A stretch of 64,000 nt of DNA from the NCBI GenBank assembly GCA_050291745.1, contig JBNKKI010000092.1, positions 13,103 through 77,102 of the forward strand. Reading direction: 5' to 3'. A model generated the notes under the pieces. The model saw only the letters and a program-made list of their open reading frames with translations. It did no database searches and was not told where the DNA came from. The stretch comes from Gammaproteobacteria bacterium (GTDB lineage Bacteria; Pseudomonadota; Gammaproteobacteria; GCA-001735895). A program made the translations under genes and the position numbers. Shown one piece after another: positions 3,016 through 31,702 of the stretch (position 1 is its first letter; each line of letters begins with the position of its first letter).

Positions 3016-4263
3016 TTAATTGAATTCCTGAGTACAGGACATATAGGCTTCCATAAGTTGAGTAGGATCCTGCATTAATCTGTCTTTCCAGATTCCCAGC
3101 TTTAAACGTGTTTCAATGAGACCTCTCAAAATGCCAATATGCTGTGTTAATCCTGTACAACTAGCACCGATAAGAATATCGTCTTCAAATTGCAGGTTTA
3201 AATATCGATAATCCTGTTCATTAAAAATTTCTACTGAATCACCACCATCAATGCCCATCCAGCTTCCAAAGGAACAGGAAATAAGCCCCAGTGTATCGAG
3301 GACATTCATATTGAGTGATCCTTGGTGATTTACTTTTTTTCCACACATATTCAGAGCTGCGATTCTACCATGATCGGTTGCTGTAGGCTGGATAGCCTGT
3401 ACCTCATGATCTCCTGAAGAAAAATCAAGTGCCTGAGCGACATCACCGGCTGCATAAATATTGGGGTTACTGCTTTGCAGGTATTGATTCACCAGAATTC
3501 CTTTATCAATTTGTATTTCGGTATTTTCGAGGAAATCAGTATTTGACATAACACCTGTTGCTGTTATCACAAGATCGGCTGGTAATAATTGACCATCAGA
3601 TAATTTGACTGAATATGAACCATTGCTATCTTTGATTATAGAGTCGATTTTACTGGAAGTCTTGACATTGATACCTTTATCTATACACCAGGATTTTATC
3701 AGGCCACCCGCTTTGTCATTGAGCATCCGGGGAACCATGCGATTGCCTGCTTCAACAACGGTTAAATTAATGCCACGTTTTAGTAATGACTCAAGGATAA
3801 TACAACCGATAAAACCTGCACCAATTAAAACGACATTAGAGCCAGGTTGAGCTAGTTGAATAATGTCACGAGCATCCTGTAGTGTCCAGCAACTGTGGAC
3901 TATATCCAGTTCAATACCTGGTATAGGTGGTGTATAAGGTTTCGAACCAGTTGAAATTAATAATTTATCGTAATGTATGTTATTAGTACTTTGCAAAATA
4001 ACCAACTGTGCTGTTGTATCGATACTGGTTACAGTATCCTGGATAATATTGATGTTTAAAGCGGCAAAATGTGTAGATGGATCACGTATATAAGTGCCTG
4101 CCTGTTCGATTTTTCCCTCCAGGAAATAGGGAATTGCCATTCGAGAATAGGGAGGCTCAGGCTCACTGCCAATGATGGTGATTTCAGCATCCTGATTATT
4201 CTTTCTGAGTGTTTCAGCTGCGATTACACCGGCTGTACCGGCACCGATTATGAGGAAATGCAT
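3016..4263 (-). CDS. FAD-dependent pyridine-nucleotide-disulfide oxidoreductase family protein (AorC-like NAD(P)H-binding subunit)
   Basis: Two Rossmann motifs (IIGAGTAGV near the N-terminus; VLIGAGFIGC mid-protein); immediately downstream of AOR. Confidence 0.8.
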   Translation of the reverse strand: MHFLIIGAGTAGVIAAETLRKNNQDAEITIIGSEPEPPYSRMAIPYFLEGKIEQAGTYIRDPSTHFAALNINIIQDTVTSIDTTAQLVILQSTNNIHYDKLLISTGSKPYTPPIPGIELDIVHSCWTLQDARDIIQLAQPGSNVVLIGAGFIGCIILESLLKRGINLTVVEAGNRMVPRMLNDKAGGLIKSWCIDKGINVKTSSKIDSIIKDSNGSYSVKLSDGQLLPADLVITATGVMSNTDFLENTEIQIDKGILVNQYLQSSNPNIYAAGDVAQALDFSSGDHEVQAIQPTATDHGRIAALNMCGKKVNHQGSLNMNVLDTLGLISCSFGSWMGIDGGDSVEIFNEQDYRYLNLQFEDDILIGASCTGLTQHIGILRGLIETRLKLGIWKDRLMQDPTQLMEAYMSCTQEFN

Positions 4264-4338
4264 AGGATTTCTCTTTGGTTCGTTATTATTTTATTTAAAG
4301 CTCATCCGGGTAATATTCCCCGGATGAGCTTTAGTTTA

Positions 4339-6189
4339 TTAAAGAGACAGGCGCTGTTTGGTCTCCTGAGTTATCTCACCTTTATCCGTCCATCCTCTAA
4401 TTTCATAATAATGAGGTAGCATTTCACCTAAACGATTAACCTGTCCTTCAGTTGGTCCACTTTTAATGGCTTCTTCCAGAAGTCTCTTTGGTAACTTGTC
4501 ATCATCTGATGTAAAACCGGCTTTATTATTAAATTGCCGTTCCAGATTCCAAACTCGCTCACCAACCTCAAGACATTTTTCAACGCTCCAGTCACCAGCG
4601 CAAGCACCATCAATTTGTGGTGCAATATTATCCATTCCCCAGGCAAAAGTGGTGAAAAGGCAGATTCCAGCAGAATCAACAAGTGCAGTCGCATCCTGAA
4701 AAGCTTTTACCAGTTCAGGCTTACCATCGGTATCTGTCTGTTCGGTTTTTACAGGAATGCCAAGAATTTCTGAGGCAATGGTATAACCCCGAACATGGCA
4801 GGCTCCACGGTTGGAAGTGGCATAGTTTAGACCTATTCCCTGTATCCCTCGAGGGTCGTAAGCCGGAAATTCCTGTCCCTTCACATGCATTGCTAATTCC
4901 GGGTGACCATATTTTTCACAAAGTCTTTTTGAGCCTAGAGCCAGATCTTTACCAAAGCCTTTTCCACTTACCAGTGCTTCAACCGCTGCCACAAAAGCTT
5001 TTGCTGAACCAAATTTTAATTCTATTCCGCCAGTATTTTCTAAAGTTAGAATACCATCTTCAAACATTTCCATTGCTGCAGCAAGAGTACAGCCAAAAGT
5101 AATAGGGTCAAAGCCATCTTCATTACATAGAAAATTGGCATAAGTTAATGCATCCAGATCATCTACGCCCGTATCAGCACCGAGCGCCCAGGCTGCTTCA
5201 TACTCAAGACCACCAGATGCACCCCAGTATTCAGGTTTATTTTCAACTGAGAAATGTCCTTTATCAATAGTCGATATACGACCACAGGCAATAGTGCATC
5301 CAAAGCAACCGGCATTCGTGGTTAGATTGGCTTTACCATCACTAGCACGAAGTTCATGCATTGCTTCTCCGGAAATATTTCCCGCACCTTCGAATCCAAC
5401 ATCTTTCATGTTTCGTGCAGGTAGACCACCGACTCCATTAATAACATTCATCAATACCTGTGTGCCATAAGCAGGTAAACCTTCTCCAGTAACCGCATTT
5501 TCTGCGAGTACGGCTTTGCCGGCATTTACAGCTTCAATAAATTTTGGCATGTCATCAATGTTACCAACTCCCAAAGTGCCTCTTACTGCAACAGCTTTAA
5601 GATTTTTGGATGCCATCACTGTACCAACACCAGAGCGACCTGCAGCTCGATGTTTATCGTTGATTACGGCTGAATAAAGACAACCGGCTTCAGCTGTTCT
5701 ACCAACACAGGCTATACGAATTTGGGGGTCCTGATGAATTTTATGCAGGATATCATCCGTCTCCCAGGCTGATTTACCCCAGAGAGTTTTAGCAGAGCGA
5801 AGTTCTGCTTTATCATTTTCTATCCATAGATAGACAGGTTTTTCTGATTTACCTTCAAAAATAAGCATATCCCATCCGGCATTTTTAAATTCAGCTCCCA
5901 GAAAACCTCCAGAGTTTGAACAGGCGATAGCGCCAGTTAGTGGGCCTTTAGTGATAACTGAGTAACGACCGGCGGTTGAAGCCATGGTTCCAGTCAAAGG
6001 TCCCGTCGCCATGATTAATTTATTATCAGGGCCTAGTGGGTCGCAGGTTGGATCAACTTCTTCACTCAGATATTTAGAAGCAAGACCTCGCTGACCAAGG
6101 TATTCATCAGCCCATTGCATATTTAAGGGCTCAGCTGTACAGGTTCCTTCAGTGAGGTTTACGCGTAATATTTTTCTTGTCCAGGACAT
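4339..6189 (-). CDS. aor: tungsten/molybdenum-pterin aldehyde:ferredoxin oxidoreductase (AOR family)
   Basis: 616 aa; N-terminal MSWTRKILRVNLTEG... and cysteine-containing stretches as in AOR; flanked by a polyferredoxin and MoaD/MoeB-like genes. Confidence 0.85.
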   Translation of the reverse strand: MSWTRKILRVNLTEGTCTAEPLNMQWADEYLGQRGLASKYLSEEVDPTCDPLGPDNKLIMATGPLTGTMASTAGRYSVITKGPLTGAIACSNSGGFLGAEFKNAGWDMLIFEGKSEKPVYLWIENDKAELRSAKTLWGKSAWETDDILHKIHQDPQIRIACVGRTAEAGCLYSAVINDKHRAAGRSGVGTVMASKNLKAVAVRGTLGVGNIDDMPKFIEAVNAGKAVLAENAVTGEGLPAYGTQVLMNVINGVGGLPARNMKDVGFEGAGNISGEAMHELRASDGKANLTTNAGCFGCTIACGRISTIDKGHFSVENKPEYWGASGGLEYEAAWALGADTGVDDLDALTYANFLCNEDGFDPITFGCTLAAAMEMFEDGILTLENTGGIELKFGSAKAFVAAVEALVSGKGFGKDLALGSKRLCEKYGHPELAMHVKGQEFPAYDPRGIQGIGLNYATSNRGACHVRGYTIASEILGIPVKTEQTDTDGKPELVKAFQDATALVDSAGICLFTTFAWGMDNIAPQIDGACAGDWSVEKCLEVGERVWNLERQFNNKAGFTSDDDKLPKRLLEEAIKSGPTEGQVNRLGEMLPHYYEIRGWTDKGEITQETKQRLSL

Positions 6190-10208: not shown

Positions 10209-13200
10209 ATGGCGACTAAATCTTTATCACTTGGCGAAATTTTAACCAGTCAGGTTATAACTCTACCGCCCGATAGCCAGGTTAGTCATGCTCTTGATAA
10301 AATGCGTGAGAAAAAAATAAGTGCAATTGTCATAGTTCAGGACAGCAAGCCGATAGGTATTTTTACTGAGCGTGATGCCGTGATGATGGTTTTCAATAAT
10401 GAAAATATCAGTCATATTCTGTTAAAAGATGTGATGACTACCCATCTTATTTCCGCTGCTGCGACGATGGATTATCGCGAAGCCTATCGAATGATTAAAA
10501 GTCATAACTTCCGTCATCTGGTCGTGGTTGATGAACAGAAAAATCTGTTAGGGATTCTCTCTGAATCAAATTTCCTGGATCATCTGGGAAATGAATTTCT
10601 TGTTCGATATAAAGAGGTTGGGTCTTTAATGACTCAGACTGTTATCACTTTACCAGTTGATGCGAGCATAAAAGATGCTATTCAACTTATGGCTCATAAT
10701 CGAATATCCTGCATAGTTCTGGAATCTAAAGGTCTACCGAAGGGGATCTTCACTGAGCGAGATTTAATTAAACTGGATAACCATTCTCCAGGTCTGCTTG
10801 CTAAACCAATCAGAAATATTATGTCTTCACCTGTTAAGACAATACTAAAAGAGGAATCTTTACCCAACGCTATTGAAAAAATGGAACGTTCAGGAATACG
10901 TCGCCTTGTTGTTGTTGATGATCAAAATAATATAATCGGACTGATAACACGAAGTGATATCGTTAAACAACTGTATGATCGCCATATAGAGCATTTACAG
11001 AATATTATTAGAGACCGTGAAGAAGAGTTAAAGCTGACTCAGAAACAGCTGAGTATAATGAATGAGCTGATTCAAACTCAACAGCTATTAGAGGAAAAGC
11101 AAATTGAGCTTGAACTTGCATTAGATGCAGGAAAAATTTTCACCTGGAAGCTGTACGCCCGTGATAAATTAATATTCAGTGATTCAAGGATGGCTCAAGT
11201 ATTTGATCTTGATACTGCTCAGATAGAAAAAGGAATTCCCCTTGAACTGTTTATTGCAATAATTGATGAGCAGGATCATGAGCTTATCTATAAATCTATA
11301 GAACATAGTATAAAGACCGGTGAGAATTTTCGTGTTGATTTTCGTATCAGTAAAGGCGATGAAGTAAAATATTTTAAAGCGAGGGGTAAAGCGTCGAAAA
11401 ATAAAGCCAATGAAATCCTAAGCCTGATAGGGATTATTGCTGATGTTACTGGTGATACTAAACATTTACTTTCGTATAAGAAAAGCCAGCAACAATTACT
11501 TCAGGCCCAGCGTATTGCGCGAATGGGTAATTGGGAACTGGATGCGAAAACGCTTAAAGCATTCTGGTCTGATGATTTACATAAGCTTTTAGGTACCACG
11601 GCTGAAATGGATGTGGGTCTTGGTTTACTTGAGTCTTATGTTCATAAAGCCGATTGGTCTGCTTTGAAGAAATCTATTGAATCAGCGATATTTGATGATA
11701 AAAAACATGAGGTTGAATATAGAGTTCAAGCAGCTGATGGATCTACGCACTGGGTATACTGTAAAGCCAAAAATATTAAAGATCATTCTGGGAAAGTCAA
11801 AAAACTGAGTGGGATTTTACAGGATATTACCGAACGTAAATATAAAGATGAAAAAATACGTTTATCAACAGCGGTATTTGAAAATTCACTGGAAGGCATA
11901 CTAATTACCGATATTGATGGAAATATTGTTGATGTAAATCCTGCTTTTTCCGATATTACAGGATACTCTTACGAGGATGTGATTGGTCAAAATACCAGAA
12001 TATTTAAATCGGGCCATCATGATGAAAAATTCTATGCTCAAATATGGCAGTCACTTAATGATTTCGGACAATGGCGCGGTGAAATCTGGAATCGACGTAG
12101 AGATGGTTCAGTTTTTCCTGAGTGGGAAAATATAAGTAGTGTGTTTGATGATCAGGGTAACAGGACGCATTATGTTTCTGTTTTTTCAGATATTAGTCAG
12201 ATTAAAAATACGCAGATAAAACTTGACTATCTGGCTCATCATGATGCTTTAACTGATTTACCTAACCGGCTGTTACTCAACGAGCGCTTAAATCAGGCAA
12301 TTCGTCATGCTAAACGATTATCCTCTAAGATGGCGATATTTTTTCTGGATCTGGATAATTTTAAGCACATTAATGACAGTCTGGGGCATCCTACCGGTGA
12401 TAGTTTACTTAAAGCTGTAACGGCTAAATTGCTGGAAACTGTTCGCCAGGATGACACAGTAGCTCGCATCGGCGGCGATGAATTTGTGTTATTACTGGAA
12501 GATATTTCCAGGCCTGAAAATGCAATTCTGATGGCTGATAAACTACTCGCTATTTTTCAGCATTCTTTTGATCTTAAGGATCATCAAATCGGTATCACAG
12601 CCAGTATGGGAATTTGTCTATATCCAGAGGATGGGGAGGATACTGAAACGCTTATGCGAAATGCAGATTCTGCTATGTATCTTGCGAAAACTGAAGGACG
12701 CAATACCTATCAGTTTTACACTAAGGAATTGACTCGAAATGCTTTTGAAAGAGTATTGCTTGAAAATAATTTACGAAAAGCTATCGATAATAAGGAATTC
12801 CTGCTTCATTTTCAGCCGCAATATAATTTAACGGATTTAAAGATAATAGGATTCGAAGCCCTGATTCGTTGGAATCATCCTGATCTAGGAATCTTATCTC
12901 CGGTGAAATTTATTCCTATCGCAGAAGATTCCGGTCTTATCATACCTATTGGAAAATGGGTTTTAACTGAAGCCTGTCTTGTTGCAAAACAATGGCTGGA
13001 CAGTGGCTATGACTTTGGCAGAATTGCCGTTAATATTGCCGGACCTCAATTACAGCGAGGTAATCTTATCAATGATGTCAATGAAGCATTAAAATTGAGC
13101 GGTTTAGCTGCCAATTATCTGGAGTTGGAAATTACGGAAGGTTTTATCATGCAACAGGCTAAGGATGCTATACAACAATTAAATGAATTAAGGATAATGG

Positions 13201-13508
13201 GTATCACAATTTCGATAGATGATTTTGGTACTGGATATTCCTCTCTCAGTTATTTAAAGCAGCTACCGGTTCAAAAAATTAAAATTGATCAATCTTTTAT
13301 CAGGGATATTCCTGATGATACAAATGATATGGCTATAGCAGATGCCATTATAGCCATGGGTAAATCTCTCGGATTAATTGTTATCGCTGAGGGTGTTGAA
13401 ACCCAGCAACAAGCTGATTTTTTAAAGCAGTTTGGTTGTCAGGAAGCGCAGGGTTTCTTATATAATAAACCATTAAGCATTGAAGAAATTCATAAACAGT
13501 TTATTTAA
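10209..13508 (+). CDS. CBS-pair(x2)-PAS-GGDEF-EAL c-di-GMP signalling protein
   Basis: 1099 aa; two CBS pairs at the N-terminus, PAS region, GGDEF (RIGGDEF present), EAL (EALIRW, DDFGTGYSS, QGF). Confidence 0.9.
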   Translation: MATKSLSLGEILTSQVITLPPDSQVSHALDKMREKKISAIVIVQDSKPIGIFTERDAVMMVFNNENISHILLKDVMTTHLISAAATMDYREAYRMIKSHNFRHLVVVDEQKNLLGILSESNFLDHLGNEFLVRYKEVGSLMTQTVITLPVDASIKDAIQLMAHNRISCIVLESKGLPKGIFTERDLIKLDNHSPGLLAKPIRNIMSSPVKTILKEESLPNAIEKMERSGIRRLVVVDDQNNIIGLITRSDIVKQLYDRHIEHLQNIIRDREEELKLTQKQLSIMNELIQTQQLLEEKQIELELALDAGKIFTWKLYARDKLIFSDSRMAQVFDLDTAQIEKGIPLELFIAIIDEQDHELIYKSIEHSIKTGENFRVDFRISKGDEVKYFKARGKASKNKANEILSLIGIIADVTGDTKHLLSYKKSQQQLLQAQRIARMGNWELDAKTLKAFWSDDLHKLLGTTAEMDVGLGLLESYVHKADWSALKKSIESAIFDDKKHEVEYRVQAADGSTHWVYCKAKNIKDHSGKVKKLSGILQDITERKYKDEKIRLSTAVFENSLEGILITDIDGNIVDVNPAFSDITGYSYEDVIGQNTRIFKSGHHDEKFYAQIWQSLNDFGQWRGEIWNRRRDGSVFPEWENISSVFDDQGNRTHYVSVFSDISQIKNTQIKLDYLAHHDALTDLPNRLLLNERLNQAIRHAKRLSSKMAIFFLDLDNFKHINDSLGHPTGDSLLKAVTAKLLETVRQDDTVARIGGDEFVLLLEDISRPENAILMADKLLAIFQHSFDLKDHQIGITASMGICLYPEDGEDTETLMRNADSAMYLAKTEGRNTYQFYTKELTRNAFERVLLENNLRKAIDNKEFLLHFQPQYNLTDLKIIGFEALIRWNHPDLGILSPVKFIPIAEDSGLIIPIGKWVLTEACLVAKQWLDSGYDFGRIAVNIAGPQLQRGNLINDVNEALKLSGLAANYLELEITEGFIMQQAKDAIQQLNELRIMGITISIDDFGTGYSSLSYLKQLPVQKIKIDQSFIRDIPDDTNDMAIADAIIAMGKSLGLIVIAEGVETQQQADFLKQFGCQEAQGFLYNKPLSIEEIHKQFI

Positions 13509-22985: not shown

Positions 22986-23210
22986 TTATTTTTCTTTAGG
23001 TTTTATTTTCTTAGGAAGCAGCGACTGGTCATCAGGAAATAATTCCAGTAATTCTTCATGTCCCATGAAACGATTGAGTTTTTCATGTAATGCCCAGATT
23101 TTATCCCACTTATCATCGGTTAAATCGAATCCTATAGGTAATATGCACACCGCATCATTATTAAAGTCAGTTAATAATTTTGGTTCTTTAAGTATCTTGG
23201 CCATCAGCAT
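22986..23210 (-). CDS. hypothetical 74 aa protein, start overlaps the upstream gene's stop by 23 nt
   Basis: ORF only; 23 nt overlap suggests translational coupling with the acyltransferase/hydrolase gene. Confidence 0.4.
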   Translation of the reverse strand: MLMAKILKEPKLLTDFNNDAVCILPIGFDLTDDKWDKIWALHEKLNRFMGHEELLELFPDDQSLLPKKIKPKEK

Positions 23211-25530
23211 CCTGTGTTAGTTCAAGTTCATTTATCTGAACGATTGAATCAATGATTTTCTGCTGTGTATTATCAATATCTTCATACAAAATGCCATGCC
23301 TTTGTGAATTAATAATTTCGATTTGTTTATCTTTTGCTGAAATATGACGGCATAATAACTTAACACTTTCTGGCTCTACCACAGGATCTTCATTGGATTG
23401 AAATAATCTGACTGGACAGTTAATCGGCGCTGCTTGTTTAAAGAACTGGTCTATGAATTTTTGTAATTCATATAAAGCTCGTATTGGGATATGGGCATAA
23501 TTTACTTCGGGGTGTTCAGCTACATTAGGTCTAAATGGAATAATTCCTTCTGCGTTAACCCATCGGACAAGTTTATTTGCCTGGTGTAATAGTGGGACAA
23601 ACTTCAATTGCTTGCTCCTAAATTCAACTGGTGCAGAAACGGAAATAACTGATGCCAGCTTATCGTCAGGATGCTGAATCGCCTGTTGTAAAGCCAGTAA
23701 GCCACCGGTAGAAAAACCAATAACATGGATATTATTAGAGTAGGCACTGAGTATATCAAAACCGCGCTTAACAGATGCCACCCACTCGCTCCAGTCACGA
23801 TCCCGTAAATCCCATGGGGAAGTGCCATGTCCTTTTAAACGCACACCAATAACATGCCAGTCAAGTTGATAAAAACGTTCTCCAAGAGATATCATTTCAG
23901 CTGGTGAGGCAAGAAATCCATGTATTAACAAAATGCCGGGAACATTATCTTTTTTTGATAAAAAACGAAACCAGTTGGCATCTTTAACATAAGTTTGTGA
24001 CTTGTTTATTTCCTCATAACGGGGTTTGTCATATGCTTTTTTATCCCATTGATAGGCAATTAACTGGTCATCATAACGGTAATTTGCAATTTGTTTTTGA
24101 TCAACATTGTGAACGCTTTTAATCTTTTTATTAAGTAAATGGATAATAGATTTAAGCGGGGCTAATTCATTAGCGTATACACCAATCAAATTCTCTGTCC
24201 GAATAACATCAAAATCAAATTCATTAATTAATTTATCATGAAACAGGTAATGATCTTCTTCATCTTTAGTTTGTACCAGTTCGATCAAATTCATTTTCTC
24301 GGTGGTTTCCAGAAATTGATGTAAGCGACTACTGCCTCCTTCAATGACAGCTCCATATTCCTGCGGGTTTTTTAAGCTCCTATGCAGGTGCACTTTGCTT
24401 TTCTGAACAGCTTTAATGCATAGATACAGGGTTTTATGAAATTCATCAGCATTGATTGATTTAATACCTGACTTATAAAGCTTAAGGATTAAATAAGAGG
24501 CTATATGGCTTAAATTTATGGTTACACTACTGTACATTGCTTTCATATAATCGTCTCTTACGAGGTGAGATTTTTTCTTCATACCAATTGAATGTATGCT
24601 TCCTCCCCAGTGACCGGTTGCTGGCGTTAGATTAAATAGTTCCTCTATTGAATCAAAGCGATGAACTACATTTGGTAGCAATAATTTTTCCCACCATTTC
24701 CAGTATTTTCCCATAATTAATGGTCTGGAAAAATGTATGTCCATATCCGTATGTTTAAATAACAGGTTTCCTTCAATAATCAACTCTTCAGCAAAACGCT
24801 TATTAATACCTTTGTTGAATAGTTTTACAGCCTGATGAAGAATATTATCATTAACTCTGATGGGGTAAAAAGTGATATGACTGGGTACGATAATGGTTGG
24901 TTTGAGAGCCTTTATCAGCAGACTTTCATAGTCATCAAACTCCAGTTGTTTTGCCCAACGCTCTACCTGTTGATAATTTCCTTTTGAGTAGTCTCTCAGC
25001 AATGCAGTTTTAAATGCATCTACAGCCAGGGCGATGACTGCTGCACCTCGATGCTGTTTACGAATTTCCATGGCAGTACGAGAATAGATTCCATATTTTC
25101 CCTTATCATCAACTACCCGTTTGTTTTTAACCATGCCTCCTTCAGGAAAAATGACCAGTTTTCTACCATGCAGGATTTCTTTTGCTATAAATGGAAAAAG
25201 ACCTGGCATAGTGTTGGGAACAACACCAATAGATCTTAGAAACTTTGCAAAACGCTCATCATCGAAGAATTCTGGAGCAGCGATGGATCGGCAATAATCA
25301 CCGGTTTCAGCATGAATAAGATATTGAGGAATAAAGGTTTCAAAACGAGCAAAATGATTAAATAAAAAAATATCACCCTGTTTAATTGTCTGATGACAGG
25401 GTTGGGGAGATTCATCATGCAGTTTGATATTTAATTTGAGTAATTTTCGAGTAGTACGAAAAGCTCTGACACAGATATCATAATTATTCGTTATTTCATA
25501 ATTAGGTGATTTTGCACTGTTTTCAGACAT
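23188..25530 (-). CDS. fusion protein: N-terminal lysophospholipid/glycerol-phosphate acyltransferase-like domain plus C-terminal alpha/beta-hydrolase (lipase/esterase) domain
   Basis: N-terminal NHFARFE (HxxxxD/E-like) and VIFPEGG (FPEGxx acyltransferase motif III); C-terminal LLIHGF...GHGTSP...GFSTGG (GxSxG nucleophile elbow). Confidence 0.65.
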   Translation of the reverse strand: MSENSAKSPNYEITNNYDICVRAFRTTRKLLKLNIKLHDESPQPCHQTIKQGDIFLFNHFARFETFIPQYLIHAETGDYCRSIAAPEFFDDERFAKFLRSIGVVPNTMPGLFPFIAKEILHGRKLVIFPEGGMVKNKRVVDDKGKYGIYSRTAMEIRKQHRGAAVIALAVDAFKTALLRDYSKGNYQQVERWAKQLEFDDYESLLIKALKPTIIVPSHITFYPIRVNDNILHQAVKLFNKGINKRFAEELIIEGNLLFKHTDMDIHFSRPLIMGKYWKWWEKLLLPNVVHRFDSIEELFNLTPATGHWGGSIHSIGMKKKSHLVRDDYMKAMYSSVTINLSHIASYLILKLYKSGIKSINADEFHKTLYLCIKAVQKSKVHLHRSLKNPQEYGAVIEGGSSRLHQFLETTEKMNLIELVQTKDEEDHYLFHDKLINEFDFDVIRTENLIGVYANELAPLKSIIHLLNKKIKSVHNVDQKQIANYRYDDQLIAYQWDKKAYDKPRYEEINKSQTYVKDANWFRFLSKKDNVPGILLIHGFLASPAEMISLGERFYQLDWHVIGVRLKGHGTSPWDLRDRDWSEWVASVKRGFDILSAYSNNIHVIGFSTGGLLALQQAIQHPDDKLASVISVSAPVEFRSKQLKFVPLLHQANKLVRWVNAEGIIPFRPNVAEHPEVNYAHIPIRALYELQKFIDQFFKQAAPINCPVRLFQSNEDPVVEPESVKLLCRHISAKDKQIEIINSQRHGILYEDIDNTQQKIIDSIVQINELELTQDADGQDT

Positions 25531-25673
25531 TCACATTTTCCAGATTAAGCTTCTATACTCAGTATATGACAAGGTTGTGTTCAATTGTTAAAAACTGGAA
25601 AAGTTTACAATAGTATTCAATAAACAGGCTTTGATGCCGAATACAACTTAAAAGTACAAGGAATAATATACAA

Positions 25674-27509
25674 ATGTTACGTCTCATTACATGTTCAAAT
25701 AAGATACTTATCAAGCTTTATATTGGCCTTTTAAGTATGCTATTTGCACTACCTTTGCAGGCTGCTCAACAAGAGGATATTCGTGTTGTTATTGATGTTT
25801 CGGGCAGTATGCAGAAAACTGATCCGGAAAATCTTCGTATTCCTGCGCTTCATTTAATCAATGGTTTAATCCCTACCGGTTCAAAAGCAGGAGTCTGGAC
25901 TTTTGGACGTTATGTGAATATGGAAGTTAAATGGGGCACTGTTAATGCAAACTGGCGCAAACTAGCTGACCTTGGTGCGGATAAAATTCATTCCAGGGGG
26001 CAATATACCAATATTGAAAGTGCTCTTAAACGTGCCACTAAAGGATGGGAGAAAGCTGATCCTGATACAAATCGAAACCTTATTCTATTAACTGATGGTA
26101 AGGTGGATATTTCTAAAAATGCAGAAAAAAATGCTATATCACGATCAAATGTATTGAATAAATCTATTCCAGAGCTCAATAAGAGGGGCATAAAGGTTCA
26201 TACCATCGCTTTATCTGATCAGACTGATGAGACCTTATTGAAAAGACTGGCATTAAAAACTTCCGGCTCTTTTGAAGTTGCGAAATCAGCAGACGATTTA
26301 CAACGAATTTTTCTACACATGTTTGAGAGAGCAACAAAACCGGATACAGTCCCTATTAAAGATAATACTTTTATGATTGATAAAAGTATTAGCGAAATGA
26401 CATTACTTGTTTTCAGGAAAGATAATAAGCTAACTCAGTTAATTGGCCCTGATAATACTAAACAGTCGCAGTCTAAACATGCTAAAAATCTTAACTGGCG
26501 TGATGAGCTTGGATATGACCTGATAACTGTTAATAAACCAGAACCGGGAAAATGGTCGCTGGATGCAGATGTTGATGATGATAACCGAGTTATGATAGTG
26601 ACAAACTTGTCACTTGTTGTGGATGAATTACCTGCCTATATGAGTCCTGATGAAGCCTTAAATATTCATGTTGAACTGCATACTCAGAGTAAACGCATAA
26701 CTAAAAATAGTTTTTTAAAATTTGTCGATTTTCATTTAAGCCATAAAGTTGCGGATAAAACAGAAAACTTACCGTTAATATTAAAAAACTCACGGGATAT
26801 TAAAGATAAAGGTATCTATTTACAGAGTATTTCATCCCCTTTAGAGGAAGGCAGGCATGAAATTGAAGTTGTTGCTGACACACGTACTTTTACACGTAGT
26901 AAAAGGTTTAGTGTTGAGGTGCAATGGCCTGTCACAGTGGAAATTAATAAATCAGCTAATCCGGGTATTTATGAACTTACGATCAAAGCAAGAGATGAAT
27001 ATATTAAAGCGGATTCCCTACAGCTTGATGTGACGTTGATAAGACCCGATAAAACTGAAAAGAAAATCGAGATAAAAACAACTGGAAATCAAGATAAGCT
27101 GGAAATTCGAGCTAATGAACAGGATGGGTTGCATCAGTTACAGATTAAAATGAAGGCGGAATCCCTGGAAGGCAAAATGGTTGAACACAAACTGGATTCT
27201 TATCCTGTTTTTGGGGTATTACTAGAAGAAAAAATGCCTGTTGAAGCAGAACTGAAGCAAGAATCTAAAAAGGAAGAAATTAAAGATGAGAATAAGCCAG
27301 TTGAAATAATTGAAGAAGTTGAAGAAAGCAATGATTCTGACTGGGAAAATACCTTGATATTCATTGTATCCACCAATGTAATTATCATTTTAGTTGTTGT
27401 TGCTGTCGTTGTTTTTATACGTAAGCGTCTGAAAAATGATGATATTGATCTAATTGCTGAAGAATCAGATGATAAAGCCTCTTCGGACGAGGATGTATTT
27501 AATGTTTGA
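25674..27509 (+). CDS. secreted von Willebrand factor A (VWA) domain protein with a C-terminal transmembrane anchor and acidic cytoplasmic tail
   Basis: Signal peptide (...ALPLQAAQ), MIDAS motif VVIDVSGSM, C-terminal TM LIFIVSTNVIIILVVVAVVVFI followed by RKRLK and a D/E-rich tail. Confidence 0.8.
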   Translation: MLRLITCSNKILIKLYIGLLSMLFALPLQAAQQEDIRVVIDVSGSMQKTDPENLRIPALHLINGLIPTGSKAGVWTFGRYVNMEVKWGTVNANWRKLADLGADKIHSRGQYTNIESALKRATKGWEKADPDTNRNLILLTDGKVDISKNAEKNAISRSNVLNKSIPELNKRGIKVHTIALSDQTDETLLKRLALKTSGSFEVAKSADDLQRIFLHMFERATKPDTVPIKDNTFMIDKSISEMTLLVFRKDNKLTQLIGPDNTKQSQSKHAKNLNWRDELGYDLITVNKPEPGKWSLDADVDDDNRVMIVTNLSLVVDELPAYMSPDEALNIHVELHTQSKRITKNSFLKFVDFHLSHKVADKTENLPLILKNSRDIKDKGIYLQSISSPLEEGRHEIEVVADTRTFTRSKRFSVEVQWPVTVEINKSANPGIYELTIKARDEYIKADSLQLDVTLIRPDKTEKKIEIKTTGNQDKLEIRANEQDGLHQLQIKMKAESLEGKMVEHKLDSYPVFGVLLEEKMPVEAELKQESKKEEIKDENKPVEIIEEVEESNDSDWENTLIFIVSTNVIIILVVVAVVVFIRKRLKNDDIDLIAEESDDKASSDEDVFNV

Positions 27510-28368
27510 AGTTTCGTCAATTATATTCAGTTTACTGATCGAAGGATTTATTCTGTTACTGGTATTATTGTCTGTTTTACTTTATTTCCAGTATAAACGA
27601 AAAAGTAAGGATAAAGTGGCCAGCCAGAAACTGGTTAAAAAAATTAAGGATCAGGCAAAAGCAAGAAAGGAGTTAACTAGCACATTCCTGCGGGAAAAAT
27701 TTGGTTTAGAAGGCAAGGAGCTGGAAAAAGTAATGAATACTATCAATAAATCTGAATTAAAATTTATGCAAACTGTTATTAATATGTACCTGCATAGAGA
27801 CGATCAGACCTTAATGGTGATGGATGAAAATGTTGCCGAATTGATTGAAACATATAAGGACTTATCCCCTAAAATCTCAGAAGTTGGAAATCCTGCTGAT
27901 TTACCTGCCGGAGAGCCTGATCCAGCATTAATTGAAGAATTGAATGAATTACGCGAAAACAATGAAAGATTATCAGATGAGTTGAGTATTACCAAAAAGA
28001 CGATGGGTAATATGATTGCGGAATTTGGAAATATGTTTGGAGGTGGTAAAGAGTCTACTCTGGATGCTGATGAAGTTTTAAATAAAGTAAGTGATATTCA
28101 TTTTGAAGCAGATGGTAGAGAAGATGTTTTTGATGCTGCTTCCGTTCTGGATGAGTCGATGGCTACTGATGATATGAATATTGATGATGTTTTGATGGAA
28201 AATGTGACAGAACCACCTGAAGATGATCAGTTACAGGCGGATTTAATTACACAGGAAATAATGGAACAAGAGCAGGTGAAGAAGAAAGAAAACAAGCCCG
28301 TTGAAATATTTGATGAAGGAATCGATGATTTAATGGATGGGATAGATCTGTCAGATGATACTCTGTAA
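27493..28368 (+). CDS. membrane-anchored, highly acidic coiled-coil protein of unknown function (partner of the VWA protein)
   Basis: N-terminal TM IIFSLLIEGFILLLVLLSVLLYF then KRKSK; D/E-rich C-terminus; shares KKENKPVEI[IF] motif with the VWA protein; start chosen at ATG 27493/27502 after GAGGA (the annotated start 27454 overlaps VWA by 56 nt). Confidence 0.55.
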   Translation: MYLMFEVSSIIFSLLIEGFILLLVLLSVLLYFQYKRKSKDKVASQKLVKKIKDQAKARKELTSTFLREKFGLEGKELEKVMNTINKSELKFMQTVINMYLHRDDQTLMVMDENVAELIETYKDLSPKISEVGNPADLPAGEPDPALIEELNELRENNERLSDELSITKKTMGNMIAEFGNMFGGGKESTLDADEVLNKVSDIHFEADGREDVFDAASVLDESMATDDMNIDDVLMENVTEPPEDDQLQADLITQEIMEQEQVKKKENKPVEIFDEGIDDLMDGIDLSDDTL

Positions 28369-28470: not shown

Positions 28471-29046
28471 TTAAAAATATTCTGGCTCATTGCCAGCTTT
28501 CCATTTGATATTACAACCCAAACTGGGAATTTGTTCGGTAGGTATAGCTTCATTATTTAATAGAGCTTCAGTAGCTGCTATTAAATCTTTCCCTGTAATT
28601 GGTATATCATTACCGGGTCTTGATCCATCAAACTGTCCTCGATAAACCAGCTTATGTTCCTTATCAAATAGAAATAAATCTGGTGTACAGGCAGCTTTAT
28701 AAGCTTTAGCCGTTTCCTGAGATTCATCATAAAGATAGGGAAATTGAAGATTATAATCGATTAATAGCTGAACCATTTTTTCGGGGCTATCTGCTTCGTA
28801 ATTATTGACATCATTGGCATTAATCATAATTATCGATAAGCCTTTCTGCTGATATTTTTGTGCATATTGTGAAAATTCATTGAGAATATGTAAAACATAG
28901 GGACAATGATTACAACTAAATACCACCAGTACAGGTTTATGAGAATAATCAGTCAGACTGATTTCTTTTCCAGTTGCAGGTTCGGGTAAACTAAAGTCCG
29001 GGGCAGTTGTACCCAGCTCTAGCATGGTTGAAGGTGTTTTAGACAT
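28471..29046 (-). CDS. thioredoxin-fold (redoxin/TlpA-like) thiol-disulfide oxidoreductase family protein
   Basis: 191 aa, VVFSCNHCPYV CxxC active-site motif. Confidence 0.65.
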   Translation of the reverse strand: MSKTPSTMLELGTTAPDFSLPEPATGKEISLTDYSHKPVLVVFSCNHCPYVLHILNEFSQYAQKYQQKGLSIIMINANDVNNYEADSPEKMVQLLIDYNLQFPYLYDESQETAKAYKAACTPDLFLFDKEHKLVYRGQFDGSRPGNDIPITGKDLIAATEALLNNEAIPTEQIPSLGCNIKWKAGNEPEYF

Positions 29047-29735: not shown

Positions 29736-30608
29736 TTAAAATTTATAAAAATAGTCCAAAGAAATTACATTACCAGTTAACTCAACGTTATTAGTCAAAA
29801 GATATTTGTTGTAATCATAAGAGAGGTCGATAGATTGATTCGATGTGAAAAAGTAATTAGTACCAACCCGTATAATAATATTTTTTGAACTGGTATCAAA
29901 ATCTTTACTGGAACTCGGTAATACAGGGGTGGGCATAGGCGATTCACCCGGAGTATGGTGAGTAGCAAAATCATTACGATTAGATATGGGTTGTTGTATG
30001 GCGATTGACGTAGAATTAGTACCAATAGTCTCATCTTCATATTTCAGATTAATGTAAACAATTAATTCTGGATCAATCTGTATATCGGTATTAATAAATA
30101 CTCCGGTACTTAATATATCCTCGATATCTGAATTTTTGGAAGAAAATTGAATTCCTGTTAACAGAGTAAGCTGATCATCAAGGCGTAAAGTATCAGCCAG
30201 GATTAGTGAAGTTATCGATCTGTTGAGATCGGAATTATCTAAAATCTCTATTTCATGTCTTAGAGCAATAGAATAAACCGGTTTAGTGTAACCACTGTCA
30301 GGAATATAACTATAAATTAATTCGCCTAATATCCCATCTCTATTTTTCCAGTCTGCATCATTATAATGTCGAGTAAACAGATCTGCATTAATGTTAACTA
30401 CAGAACGTCTGCTCAAGCCCTTGTAATAGTGAGCAGATCCAGTTAATTGATTATAGTTTTGCCTTTCTCCATCAAAAACTTCTGAAGCCAGTCCCAGTTG
30501 AATATTAAAGGCAGGCGCTGCAGCCTTTGCATTTAAAGCAAATAGCATTGCGGTAGTAATAAAAGTAATTTTTATTATATACCTGCCTGGCATCATGAAG
30601 TTTCTCAA
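29736..30608 (-). CDS. putative outer-membrane beta-barrel protein
   Basis: Signal peptide (...ALNAKAAAP), alternating amphipathic strands, C-terminal ...LDYFYKF aromatic end. Confidence 0.5.
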   Translation of the reverse strand: MRNFMMPGRYIIKITFITTAMLFALNAKAAAPAFNIQLGLASEVFDGERQNYNQLTGSAHYYKGLSRRSVVNINADLFTRHYNDADWKNRDGILGELIYSYIPDSGYTKPVYSIALRHEIEILDNSDLNRSITSLILADTLRLDDQLTLLTGIQFSSKNSDIEDILSTGVFINTDIQIDPELIVYINLKYEDETIGTNSTSIAIQQPISNRNDFATHHTPGESPMPTPVLPSSSKDFDTSSKNIIIRVGTNYFFTSNQSIDLSYDYNKYLLTNNVELTGNVISLDYFYKF

Positions 30609-30955: not shown

Positions 30956-31702
30956 ATGACTATAGAAGGTATCAGCATGAGCGAGAATATCGAAGATCCC
31001 CGAAGAGATTTTCTAATCAATGCACTAAGTCTGGGATTATTTACCACAGGTACTATGTCAGGTCTCATTCAACCAGCTTTTGCCATGGGGGATATTCCTG
31101 CCAAAATGCCACCCGGACAGTCTATCTATAAACTCAAAGGAGATGTGACAGTCAATGGCGAAAAAGCTACGATCAAAACTCAGATTACGGCTAACTCATT
31201 GATTAAAACCGGGCGTTCCAGTCAAATTATTTTTGTTGTAGGTGGTGATGCTTTTATTCTTCGTAGTCATAGTGTGTTACAACTCGAAGGCGATAGCTTG
31301 CTAATTAAGGGAATTCGAATGCTGTCTGGAAAACTACTATCGGTTTTCGGTAAACGCGTTGAACCACATAGAATTAGAACCCTGACCGCGACAATTGGTA
31401 TTAGAGGTACTGGTATTTATGTAGAATCAGATGAGGAAAAATCCTATATTTGCACCTGTTACGGGCATACCCTGATTGCTTCAGCAGAGAACCCGGATAC
31501 CCGGCAGGAAGTCATATCAAAGCATCATGACCAGCCCTTATATGTTTATTCAGCAAATTCCGGCAAAAAAATTATTGAACCAGCTCCATTTATCGACCAT
31601 ACGGATGTGGAACTGGCATTAATCGAAGAACTAGTGGGAAGAACAACACCTTTTGTAATTACTAATGGTGTGTATGATGCACCAAGAAAAAGATCTTATT
31701 GA
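30956..31702 (+). CDS. Tat-exported FecR-domain protein
   Basis: Twin-arginine motif PRRDFLINALSLGLFT...AFA; FecR-like core ...TIGIRGTGIYVE. Confidence 0.5.
   Translation: MTIEGISMSENIEDPRRDFLINALSLGLFTTGTMSGLIQPAFAMGDIPAKMPPGQSIYKLKGDVTVNGEKATIKTQITANSLIKTGRSSQIIFVVGGDAFILRSHSVLQLEGDSLLIKGIRMLSGKLLSVFGKRVEPHRIRTLTATIGIRGTGIYVESDEEKSYICTCYGHTLIASAENPDTRQEVISKHHDQPLYVYSANSGKKIIEPAPFIDHTDVELALIEELVGRTTPFVITNGVYDAPRKRSY

Follow-up and report, generated by a model that had tools for sequence, protein, structure and literature searches.

A conserved gene pair encoding a periplasmic VWA protein and a predicted membrane-anchored partner in uncultured Gammaproteobacteria

Membrane proteins with a VWA domain are already known, as is the stalk of the TIGR03503 family, whose members combine a signal peptide, a beta-sandwich stalk, a single C-terminal transmembrane (TM) helix and a short cytoplasmic tail. 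A literature search for TIGR03503 returned no papers. In the Bat/MoxR-VWA systems, inner-membrane VWA proteins are encoded beside small, single-pass proteins. Here, a pair of adjacent genes with likenesses to both is analysed in a 64,000-nucleotide (nt) stretch of DNA from a Gammaproteobacteria bacterium (assembly GCA_050291745.1, contig JBNKKI010000092.1, positions 13,103 to 77,102), which is called the window and whose own numbering is used throughout. Gene 1 encodes a VWA protein and gene 2, which overlaps its end, a membrane protein to which no Pfam, NCBIfam or PADLOC family fits. That the two genes form a module is held with high confidence. Both are proposed to encode subunits of one inner-membrane complex, a receptor and its adaptor, and this reading is given a probability of about 0.5.

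Both open reading frames (ORFs) were found where the initial annotation had placed them. Its description of gene 1, namely a signal peptide, a VWA domain with the DxSxS of a metal-ion-dependent adhesion site (MIDAS), a beta-rich spacer, one TM helix and an acidic tail, was borne out by Pfam, by alignment, by an AlphaFold2 (AF2) model and by inspection of the sequence. Gene 1 has the following features, in which model confidence is given as the predicted local distance difference test (pLDDT) and charge as the isoelectric point (pI):

25674-27509, plus strand: gene 1, a predicted type-I inner-membrane VWA protein of 611 amino acids (aa)
25674-25763, plus strand: predicted Sec signal peptide, about residues 1-30 (...ALPLQA/AQQ), read from the sequence
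25770-26336, plus strand: VWA domain with intact MIDAS (D41-x-S43-x-S45, T112, D141), from Pfam and alignment
26343-27215, plus strand: stalk of three beta-sandwich domains, residues 224-514, TIGR03503-like, from AF2, NCBIfam and Pfam
27249-27338, plus strand: acidic, disordered periplasmic juxtamembrane linker, about residues 526-555 (pLDDT <50, pI 4.26)
27339-27419, plus strand: TM helix, about residues 556-582; Asn568 (nt 27375-27377) is conserved, and residue 577 is small (G/A)
27420-27506, plus strand: cytoplasmic tail RKRLKNDDIDLIAEESDD...DVFNV, 29 aa, acidic, pI 4.2

The signal peptide has a basic n-region, a hydrophobic core and an A-x-A-like site, and the model places a helix over residues 3-24. 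The VWA domain (PF00092) spans residues 35-211 (Pfam E=7e-13). Across 104 gene-1 homologues, D41, S43, S45 and D141 are invariant and T112 is kept in at least 90%; by sequence the MIDAS is intact and metal binding is predicted. The first stalk domain matches Pfam GBD_Hemicentin (hemicentin GBD-like) with E=1e-8. The AF2 model has a pLDDT of 89 and a predicted template modelling score (pTM) of 0.80, with the stalk domains above a pLDDT of 90. The cytoplasmic tail fits a family motif in which basic residues are followed by [DE]-phi-x-L-phi-[DE][DE]. More than 1900 homologues of gene 1 were found, under the source names "VWA domain-containing protein" or "TIGR03503 family".

Gene 2 can be divided into a membrane anchor, a conserved helical core and, in its long forms, an acidic tail:

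27502-28368, plus strand: gene 2, a bitopic membrane protein of 288 aa, predicted N-out/C-in, with no Pfam or NCBIfam model
27502-27509, plus strand: 8-nt overlap ATGTTTGA in which gene 2 starts and gene 1 stops, coupling their translation
27517-27594, plus strand: TM helix, residues 6-31, with the invariant Glu14 at nt 27541-27543 and KRKSK after the helix
27595-28056, plus strand: conserved cytoplasmic helical core, residues 32-185, ending ITKxTMGNMIAEFGNMFGGG
28057-28308, plus strand: variable, acidic, disordered linker, residues 186-269 (alignment columns unconserved, pLDDT <60)
28309-28365, plus strand: conserved C-terminal peptide FDEGIDDLMDGIDLSDDTL, an EIDAL/CheZ-C-like short linear motif by the long-form clade alignments

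The most likely start of gene 2 is the ATG at 27502 rather than the TTG at 27454, because GAGGA lies 8 nt upstream, because this start gives the 8-nt overlap with the gene 1 stop and because it yields the family N-terminus M-[IF]-E-[VI]-S. The initial annotation had gene 2 overlapping or closely following gene 1, which holds with the start moved to 27502. The overlap, A ATG NTT GAA, constrains the end of gene 1 to N-[DV]-stop and the beginning of gene 2 to M-[IF]-E. As the 8-nt overlap dictates both termini, it also accounts for the conserved ...VND, ...IDD and ...FNV ends of gene-1 homologues.

Since KRKSK adjoins the TM helix, gene 2 is predicted by the positive-inside rule to have its N-terminus outside and its C-terminus inside. 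The first, membrane-proximal 94 residues of the core are basic with a pI of 9.6. Overall, the protein has a pI of 4.3, and residues 186-288 contain 34 D/E against 6 K/R. The model has a pLDDT above 90 over residues 1-120 and confident helix in residues 32-185 only. Thus, the N-terminal TM helix and the high acidity that had been read from the sequence both stand, and the acidic part (residues 186-288), described before as a coiled coil, is instead predicted to be disordered.

The gene-2 family is sizeable. A word-indexed search returned 64 homologues, none of which carries a Pfam domain, and an exhaustive profile search gave 942 clusters at 50% identity, of which 650 reach E <=1e-10. A structure search of the PDB with the gene 2 model gave no match with E <0.8, and the full-length profile against the same database gave only a spurious match to the CD4 TM segment. 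Among the PADLOC defence models, gene 1 has no match and gene 2 a single marginal one (E=1e-3); by these models the pair is not a known anti-phage defence system.

The pairing of the two genes holds in both directions. A genome scan from gene 2 gave 22 loci, all in uncultured Gammaproteobacteria and three of them truncated or frameshifted, and gene 2 comes after gene 1 in 22 of 22; in all 19 in which both could be scored, a gene 1 homologue lies directly upstream on the same strand. The reverse test used 80 metagenome loci picked via gene 1 alone (34-69% identity), of which 74 have at least 300 nt downstream. The initial annotation took the genes for a two-gene membrane module, a claim that orthologues never found together would contradict; an ORF of the gene-2 family lies directly downstream on the same strand in 72 of these 74 loci, which settles the matter decisively in favour of co-occurrence. 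In the 72 loci, gene 2 starts between -14 and +27 nt from the gene 1 stop, most often at exactly -8; about 45 of the 74 metagenome loci share the identical -8 overlap, as do 9 of 20 genome loci. Distant gene-2 members occur in Candidatus Thiodiazotropha, Sedimenticola and Chromatiales bins. Here, a VWA protein of about 600 aa is encoded directly upstream of gene 2, overlapping or abutting it, in five of five loci. As adjacency is kept in genome, metagenome and distant loci alike, the module is genuine.

In the clade of the window, the whole five-gene neighbourhood is conserved. Across all loci the flanks fall into three different groups, marked by a divergent gene for a 780-aa hydrolase fusion, by co-directional Lip_A_acyltrans with rhodanese, or by a cysteine/methionine pyridoxal phosphate (PLP) enzyme. 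The third group, found in metagenome loci, has the PLP enzyme upstream and neither the 780-aa neighbour nor the acyltransferase. In the distant loci, the pair comes after Lip_A_acyltrans and rhodanese, and the genes downstream of it are for SoxYZ, TusA, restriction or polysaccharides. Because the pair persists across three unrelated neighbourhoods, adjacency and coupling belong to the pair itself and not to its surroundings.

Each of the two TM helices carries a conserved polar residue. Asn568 of gene 1 is kept by 103 of 104 aligned homologues and by every one of the 74 metagenome loci; Glu14 of gene 2 is invariant in alignments A1 and A6, nearly invariant in A2, and likewise present in 74 of 74 metagenome loci. 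They sit a median of 15 (Asn568) and 18 (Glu14) residues before the first cytoplasmic R/K, and both helices are predicted from the sequence to run from the periplasm to the cytoplasm. The simplest reading of polar residues at matching depth in two co-translated, single-pass proteins is that they touch within the membrane, and with moderate confidence the two products are taken to form a TM-TM complex. In favour of a complex, too, the longer the cytoplasmic tail of gene 1, the longer tends to be the tail of gene 2 (rho=0.54, p=0.008, n=23; rho=0.52, p=0.0014, n=35; uncorrected for phylogeny). In addition, the acidic tail of gene 1 could rest on the basic juxtamembrane part of gene 2.

The C-terminus of the long-form clade of gene 2 reads xDE(I/V)D(D/E)L(L/M)(D/N)G(I/L)DLS(D/E)D and is conserved while the linker before it varies and is disordered. 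This peptide fits the acidic-phi-D-x-L-L pattern at a protein terminus on a flexible tether (EIDAL-type). When its profile was compared with 177,635 PDB sequences, the single match was CheZ residues 199-211 (VASQDQVDDLLDS), at a non-significant E=2.5. These CheZ residues are a tethered C-terminal peptide that binds CheY. Relative P0189 reads QDEIDALLNS, which contains EIDALLN exactly, including the EIDALL of FliM. A gene-2 relative of 871 aa has an internal SVDDVDALLASLDDE, and one relative carries NPDDILADLGLD in three tandem copies. Distant relatives end in DDLADIWADALAEQ, a profile of which matches the N-terminus of FliN alone in the PDB (LDDLWADALNEQ, E=4e-5); Pfam FliN_N appears on four distant relatives below threshold. 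The EIDAL(L) peptide of FliM/FliY binds phosphorylated CheY (PMC9126983, PMC6946799), and according to the summary in one preprint EIDAL(L) is necessary and sufficient for FlhG binding in Shewanella (bioRxiv 10.1101/2022.04.21.489128). By their sequence, long-form gene 2 proteins would tether peptides like those with which flagellar switch proteins and CheZ hold soluble partners. That the terminal peptide recruits a partner resembling CheY or FlhG is put forward tentatively, as a rather doubtful part of the proposal.

The family contains further arrangements of its C-terminal part. A relative at locus L027 (6983-8266) is 427 aa long. Its acidic tail contains three tandem PPAPNPDDILADLGLDPEPE, and its last residues, ERQRIIDADS, recur at the end of P0295, P0302 and P0318; the tandem copies suggest multivalent short linear motifs. 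Very long forms of 650-870 aa are encoded at L085 (5951-8566) and also at L079 and L086-L090. They contain long (E/A/V)-rich repeats, two copies of KM(T/S)(D/N)(Y/F)IKGEWNN(N)VPDIYGK, an internal DDVDALLASLDDE and a conserved end, (N/E)(Q/D)(N/E)EL(Q/K)(S/A)ILS(N/S)IPSF, and their gene-1 partners end in NPGEQL.

The receptor-adaptor complex is proposed to work as follows. Gene 1 would present a MIDAS-containing VWA head for ligand binding in the periplasm, carried on the stalk of three beta-sandwiches; a flexible acidic linker would join the stalk to the single TM helix, which is followed by the short acidic tail in the cytoplasm. Gene 2 would be made from the same mRNA by translational coupling and inserted with its N-terminus out, and its TM helix with the invariant Glu would pack against that of gene 1 with the conserved Asn at a similar depth. 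The conserved helical domain of gene 2 would then lie in the cytoplasm, where its basic, membrane-proximal part could hold the acidic tail of gene 1. In long forms, a disordered acidic tether would end in the EIDAL/CheZ-C-type peptide, which might recruit a soluble cytoplasmic partner such as a CheY-like receiver domain or an FlhG/MinD-like ATPase. In this way, occupancy of the periplasmic VWA domain could be linked with a cytoplasmic protein, or such a protein could be held at a fixed site in the envelope. Any naming of the periplasmic ligand or the cytoplasmic partner is speculative. In its strongest form, the proposal describes a bacterial integrin-like link, in which a MIDAS ligand signal passes through the Asn-Glu TM pair and the adaptor peptide captures or releases a CheY-like regulator or an FlhG/MinD-type ATPase; taken as a whole, this form is unlikely.

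Several observations weigh against the receptor-adaptor reading. The match to CheZ is not significant, a single-sequence search with the EIDALLN-bearing tail gave no match, and the window's own gene 2 has the variant EGIDDLM and not EIDAL. No flagellar or chemotaxis genes are present within the window. About 39 of 48 complete metagenome gene-2 proteins are short forms of about 200 aa that have no such peptide; as most members are of this kind, partner recruitment cannot be the core function of the family. At the membrane, Asn and Glu are both invariant and so give no covariation signal, and either could serve homo-oligomerisation. The correlation between tail lengths ignores kinship among the sequences. 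Finally, the two exceptions to the pairing, L068 and L078, which belong to one lineage, encode a gene 1 with the TM Asn and have no gene 2 downstream; a convergent gene for a thioredoxin-fold protein directly follows gene 1 instead.

The main rival is a purely structural tether, in which the VWA domain of gene 1 links the inner membrane to peptidoglycan or to a component of the outer membrane and no signal is passed. Gene 2 would then be a stabilising or assembly subunit whose acidic tail has no specific partner. The prevalence of short forms lacking the C-terminal peptide is what this reading expects, and the stalk and linker together are, by estimate, long enough to reach the wall. Genes near the pair in the window encode two envelope proteins, a TIGR04211 SH3-and-anchor protein and the CsiV peptidoglycan-binding protein, and lipid acyltransferase-type genes adjoin the pair in two clades; however, neighbouring genes vary between clades. 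A conserved cytoplasmic domain of 150 aa is also hard to explain without a cytoplasmic partner, and so are conserved, tethered terminal peptides, present as three repeats in one relative. A structural role is thus possible, though it is not the favoured explanation.

A reduced Bat/MoxR-type VWA system is improbable. Under this reading, gene 2 would count as a divergent relative of DUF4381, and the pair would depend on a MoxR ATPase from another place in the genome. Weak matches to DUF4381 (PF14316) were obtained for 18 of 27 gene-2 relatives (best E=8e-4) and to BatA_N for five, but the DUF4381 matches score at best about 17-18 bits against a gathering score of 27.2 and cover protein residues 5-51 and profile positions 13-61 of 145, that is, the TM helix and its basic flank. 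Homology of gene 2 to DUF4381 or BatA was rejected on these grounds. An AAA_5 and DUF2201 gene pair does lie 5-8 kb from gene 1 and gene 2 in three distant loci; it is on the opposite strand, forms a pair of its own and is absent from the other two context groups. No MoxR, DUF58 or DUF2201 gene is present in the window or in the 22 related loci, and linkage to MoxR/DUF2201 was discarded. Nor does the window contain BatA-E, which agrees with the earlier statement that the pair does not belong to a known VWA system. NF047506 (BatB) scores 15.7 bits on gene 1 against a cutoff of 350, and any VWA domain resembles BatB structurally.

Still less probable is a reading that came with the initial annotation, in which a motif common to both proteins, (D/K)ENKPVEI(I/F), marks a shared binding partner or a module derived by duplication, and so a functional link. 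The sharing as such is real: the 7-mer ENKPVEI occurs exactly in gene 1 (residues 539-545, nt 27288-27308) and in gene 2 (residues 263-269, nt 28288-28308), and a common 7-mer arose in 0.1% of whole-protein shuffles (p ~1e-3) and, when just the acidic segments were shuffled, in 0.025% (p=2.5e-4). Of 102 gene-1 homologues, 13, which all belong to the closest sub-clade, retain a related P[AV]EI[IV]EE-like motif; of 271 gene-2 family proteins, only the window's own does. The remaining 89 and 270 proteins have no such motif, and such an absence from homologues is what the initial annotation had named as a sign of chance similarity. In 20 other loci the longest match between the tail regions of both proteins is a 4-mer, and the shared motif is particular to this one genome. 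In gene 2, KPVEI falls in the variable columns of the linker, and it is the residues that follow, FDEGIDDLxDGIDLSDD, that are conserved.

Furthermore, the copies are predicted to lie on opposite sides of the membrane, that of gene 1 in the periplasm and that of gene 2 in the cytoplasm, so that one partner could not reach both. The proteins are otherwise dissimilar. The likeness at the nucleotide level that had been pointed out adds nothing beyond the identical amino acids, as three of seven synonymous sites differ and the other matches are as expected from AT-biased codon use; conversion between the copies at the DNA level is ruled out by the same three of seven codons. Among the roughly 1000 pairs of proteins that the window offers, chance alone should yield one such 7-mer, and a p of about 1e-3 is unremarkable against that number and only modestly unusual for adjacent pairs. 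The motif is treated as a coincidence in two K/E-rich linkers. Its copies are exactly 1000 nt apart with no repeat structure around them, and this too is taken as coincidence.

Lastly, inherited synteny without a functional tie between the proteins is hardly credible: in the window's clade the conserved five-gene neighbourhood means that adjacency could be inertia, but the pair is kept in three unrelated neighbourhoods, down to 34% identity and with a conserved 8-nt start/stop overlap.

The pair is of interest beyond this locus. Gene 2 represents a sizeable family without structural relative or literature, and it is nearly always tied by the 8-nt overlap to a VWA/TIGR03503-like receptor. Through the pair, the uncharacterised TIGR03503-type proteins become open to experiment, and so does the question of how gammaproteobacterial periplasmic VWA domains might reach the cytoplasm without a MoxR ATPase. 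Were the terminal peptides to bind CheY- or FlhG-like proteins, this would be a new coupling of envelope contact to motility or polarity, and under the integrin-like form of the proposal envelope contact would govern motility or polar organisation, with no histidine kinase involved. If the peptides do not bind such proteins, the pair would still be a widespread envelope complex of uncultured marine and sediment Gammaproteobacteria, including sulfur-oxidising symbionts.

On one side of the co-directional pair is a divergent gene at 23188-25530, and on the other a convergent gene at 28471-29046, both on the minus strand. A possible promoter lies in the divergent intergenic region:

25530-25559, plus strand: sigma-70-like promoter candidate TTCACA-18-TATACT, in the 143-bp region 5' of gene 1

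This site has 10 of 12 consensus matches, and the count of such sites in the region is not above that in shuffles, so it is a candidate only. A search of the locus against Rfam gave no matches. The divergent gene encodes the 780-aa fusion, which has a C-terminal alpha/beta hydrolase domain (Hydrolase_4) at residues 533-750. Its N-terminal 500 aa have no Pfam match and contain NHFARFE...FPEGG, which presumably resembles PlsC-type acyltransferase motifs. It is better conserved than the VWA pair: identity ranges over 51-76% among the 22 genome loci and, where metagenome loci encode it, over 58-84%. At L024, L025, L027, L028 and one JGI locus, Lip_A_acyltrans (PF03279) precedes the pair on the same strand, with a divergent rhodanese upstream, and in the Thiodiazotropha/Sedimenticola-like clade the cluster may consist of three genes with Lip_A_acyltrans. 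A general linkage to acyltransferases was considered and dropped: the N-terminus of the 780-aa neighbour is not similar to the distant Lip_A_acyltrans, and neither gene occurs in the third context group.

Elsewhere in the window, housekeeping and signalling genes encode Pst/Pho, Mfd, LolCE, ComEC, MsbA, Der and a PAS-GGDEF-EAL protein. The last (10209-13508, plus strand) has 1099 aa, scores 743 bits as DibA-like (cutoff 980) and has an N-terminal match to an IMP dehydrogenase segment; its presence shows that the organism uses cyclic di-GMP signalling. Local G+C is 0.43 at 4001-6000 and about 0.37 elsewhere. The ORF at 4339-6189 (minus strand) encodes 616 aa that match aldehyde:ferredoxin oxidoreductase over the first 211 residues in the best-scoring stretch, and it could be divergent or recently acquired. 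Two further genes fit no Pfam or NCBIfam family. One (30956-31702, plus strand) encodes 248 aa with a predicted twin-arginine-like signal, RRDFLINALSLG. The other (29736-30608, minus strand) encodes 290 aa with a signal peptide, is beta-rich, ends in F and looks like an outer-membrane protein.

How the pair compares with known systems depends on the part considered. With CheZ, FliM and FliN, gene 2 shares only a short, acidic, amphipathic peptide on a disordered tether, and the remainder is unrelated. Here, DEIDxLLDGIDLS of the gene 2 clade is set against QVDDLLDSLGF of CheZ, a non-significant match, and EIDALLN of FliM, which is exact in P0189; in the distant relatives, the match is to FliN residues 15-32 (FliN_N, PF16973; E=4e-5). 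No gene 2 relative has a Pfam match to CheZ (PF04344), and CheX appears in one relative only, with E=0.21. A catalytic motif like DxxxQ of CheZ or [DS]xxxExxN of CheC/CheX was considered for gene 2 and rejected, as E174-x2-N177 of the close clade is replaced by E-Y-S-S in distant members.

Structure searches with the gene 1 model returned VWA proteins only, with ANTXR2 and integrin-type receptors among the top matches. The layout of gene 1 is like that of ANTXR2/CMG2, TEM8 and the integrin I-domains, with a MIDAS head, an Ig-like stalk, one TM helix and a short tail. Identity to these eukaryotic receptors is 12-18% over the VWA fold only, which makes this an analogy in design rather than a case of full-length homology, and gene 1, unlike them, has a membrane-anchored partner. 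Compared with the Bat/MoxR-VWA systems, the pair has no MoxR, DUF58, TPR-BatB/C or BatD gene beside it. In addition, BatA has N-terminal TM helices, whereas in gene 1 a signal peptide and the VWA domain come first, the TM helix is C-terminal and there is no TPR.

The closest likeness over the stalk and membrane region is to TIGR03503. Gene 1 matches the whole of this model over residues 225-585 with 149.9 bits (E=9e-44), below the NCBIfam cutoff of 305.6 bits, and three distant relatives score 125-168 bits. A search of a plasmid collection gave generic VWA matches only, plus an Aeromonas TIGR03503 protein that serves as a control. This single control, from Aeromonas caviae (418 aa, downstream of dnaQ), scores 371 bits; it includes neither a VWA domain nor the TM Asn, and gene 2 does not follow it. 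Gene 1, in contrast, is extended at its N-terminus by a VWA domain of about 190 aa, has the TM Asn and is followed by gene 2. Thus, by score and by architecture gene 1 is not a member of TIGR03503, and what sets the pair apart from described systems is its obligate partner family, the coupling of the two genes, the conserved polar pair in the TM helices and the switch-like peptides.

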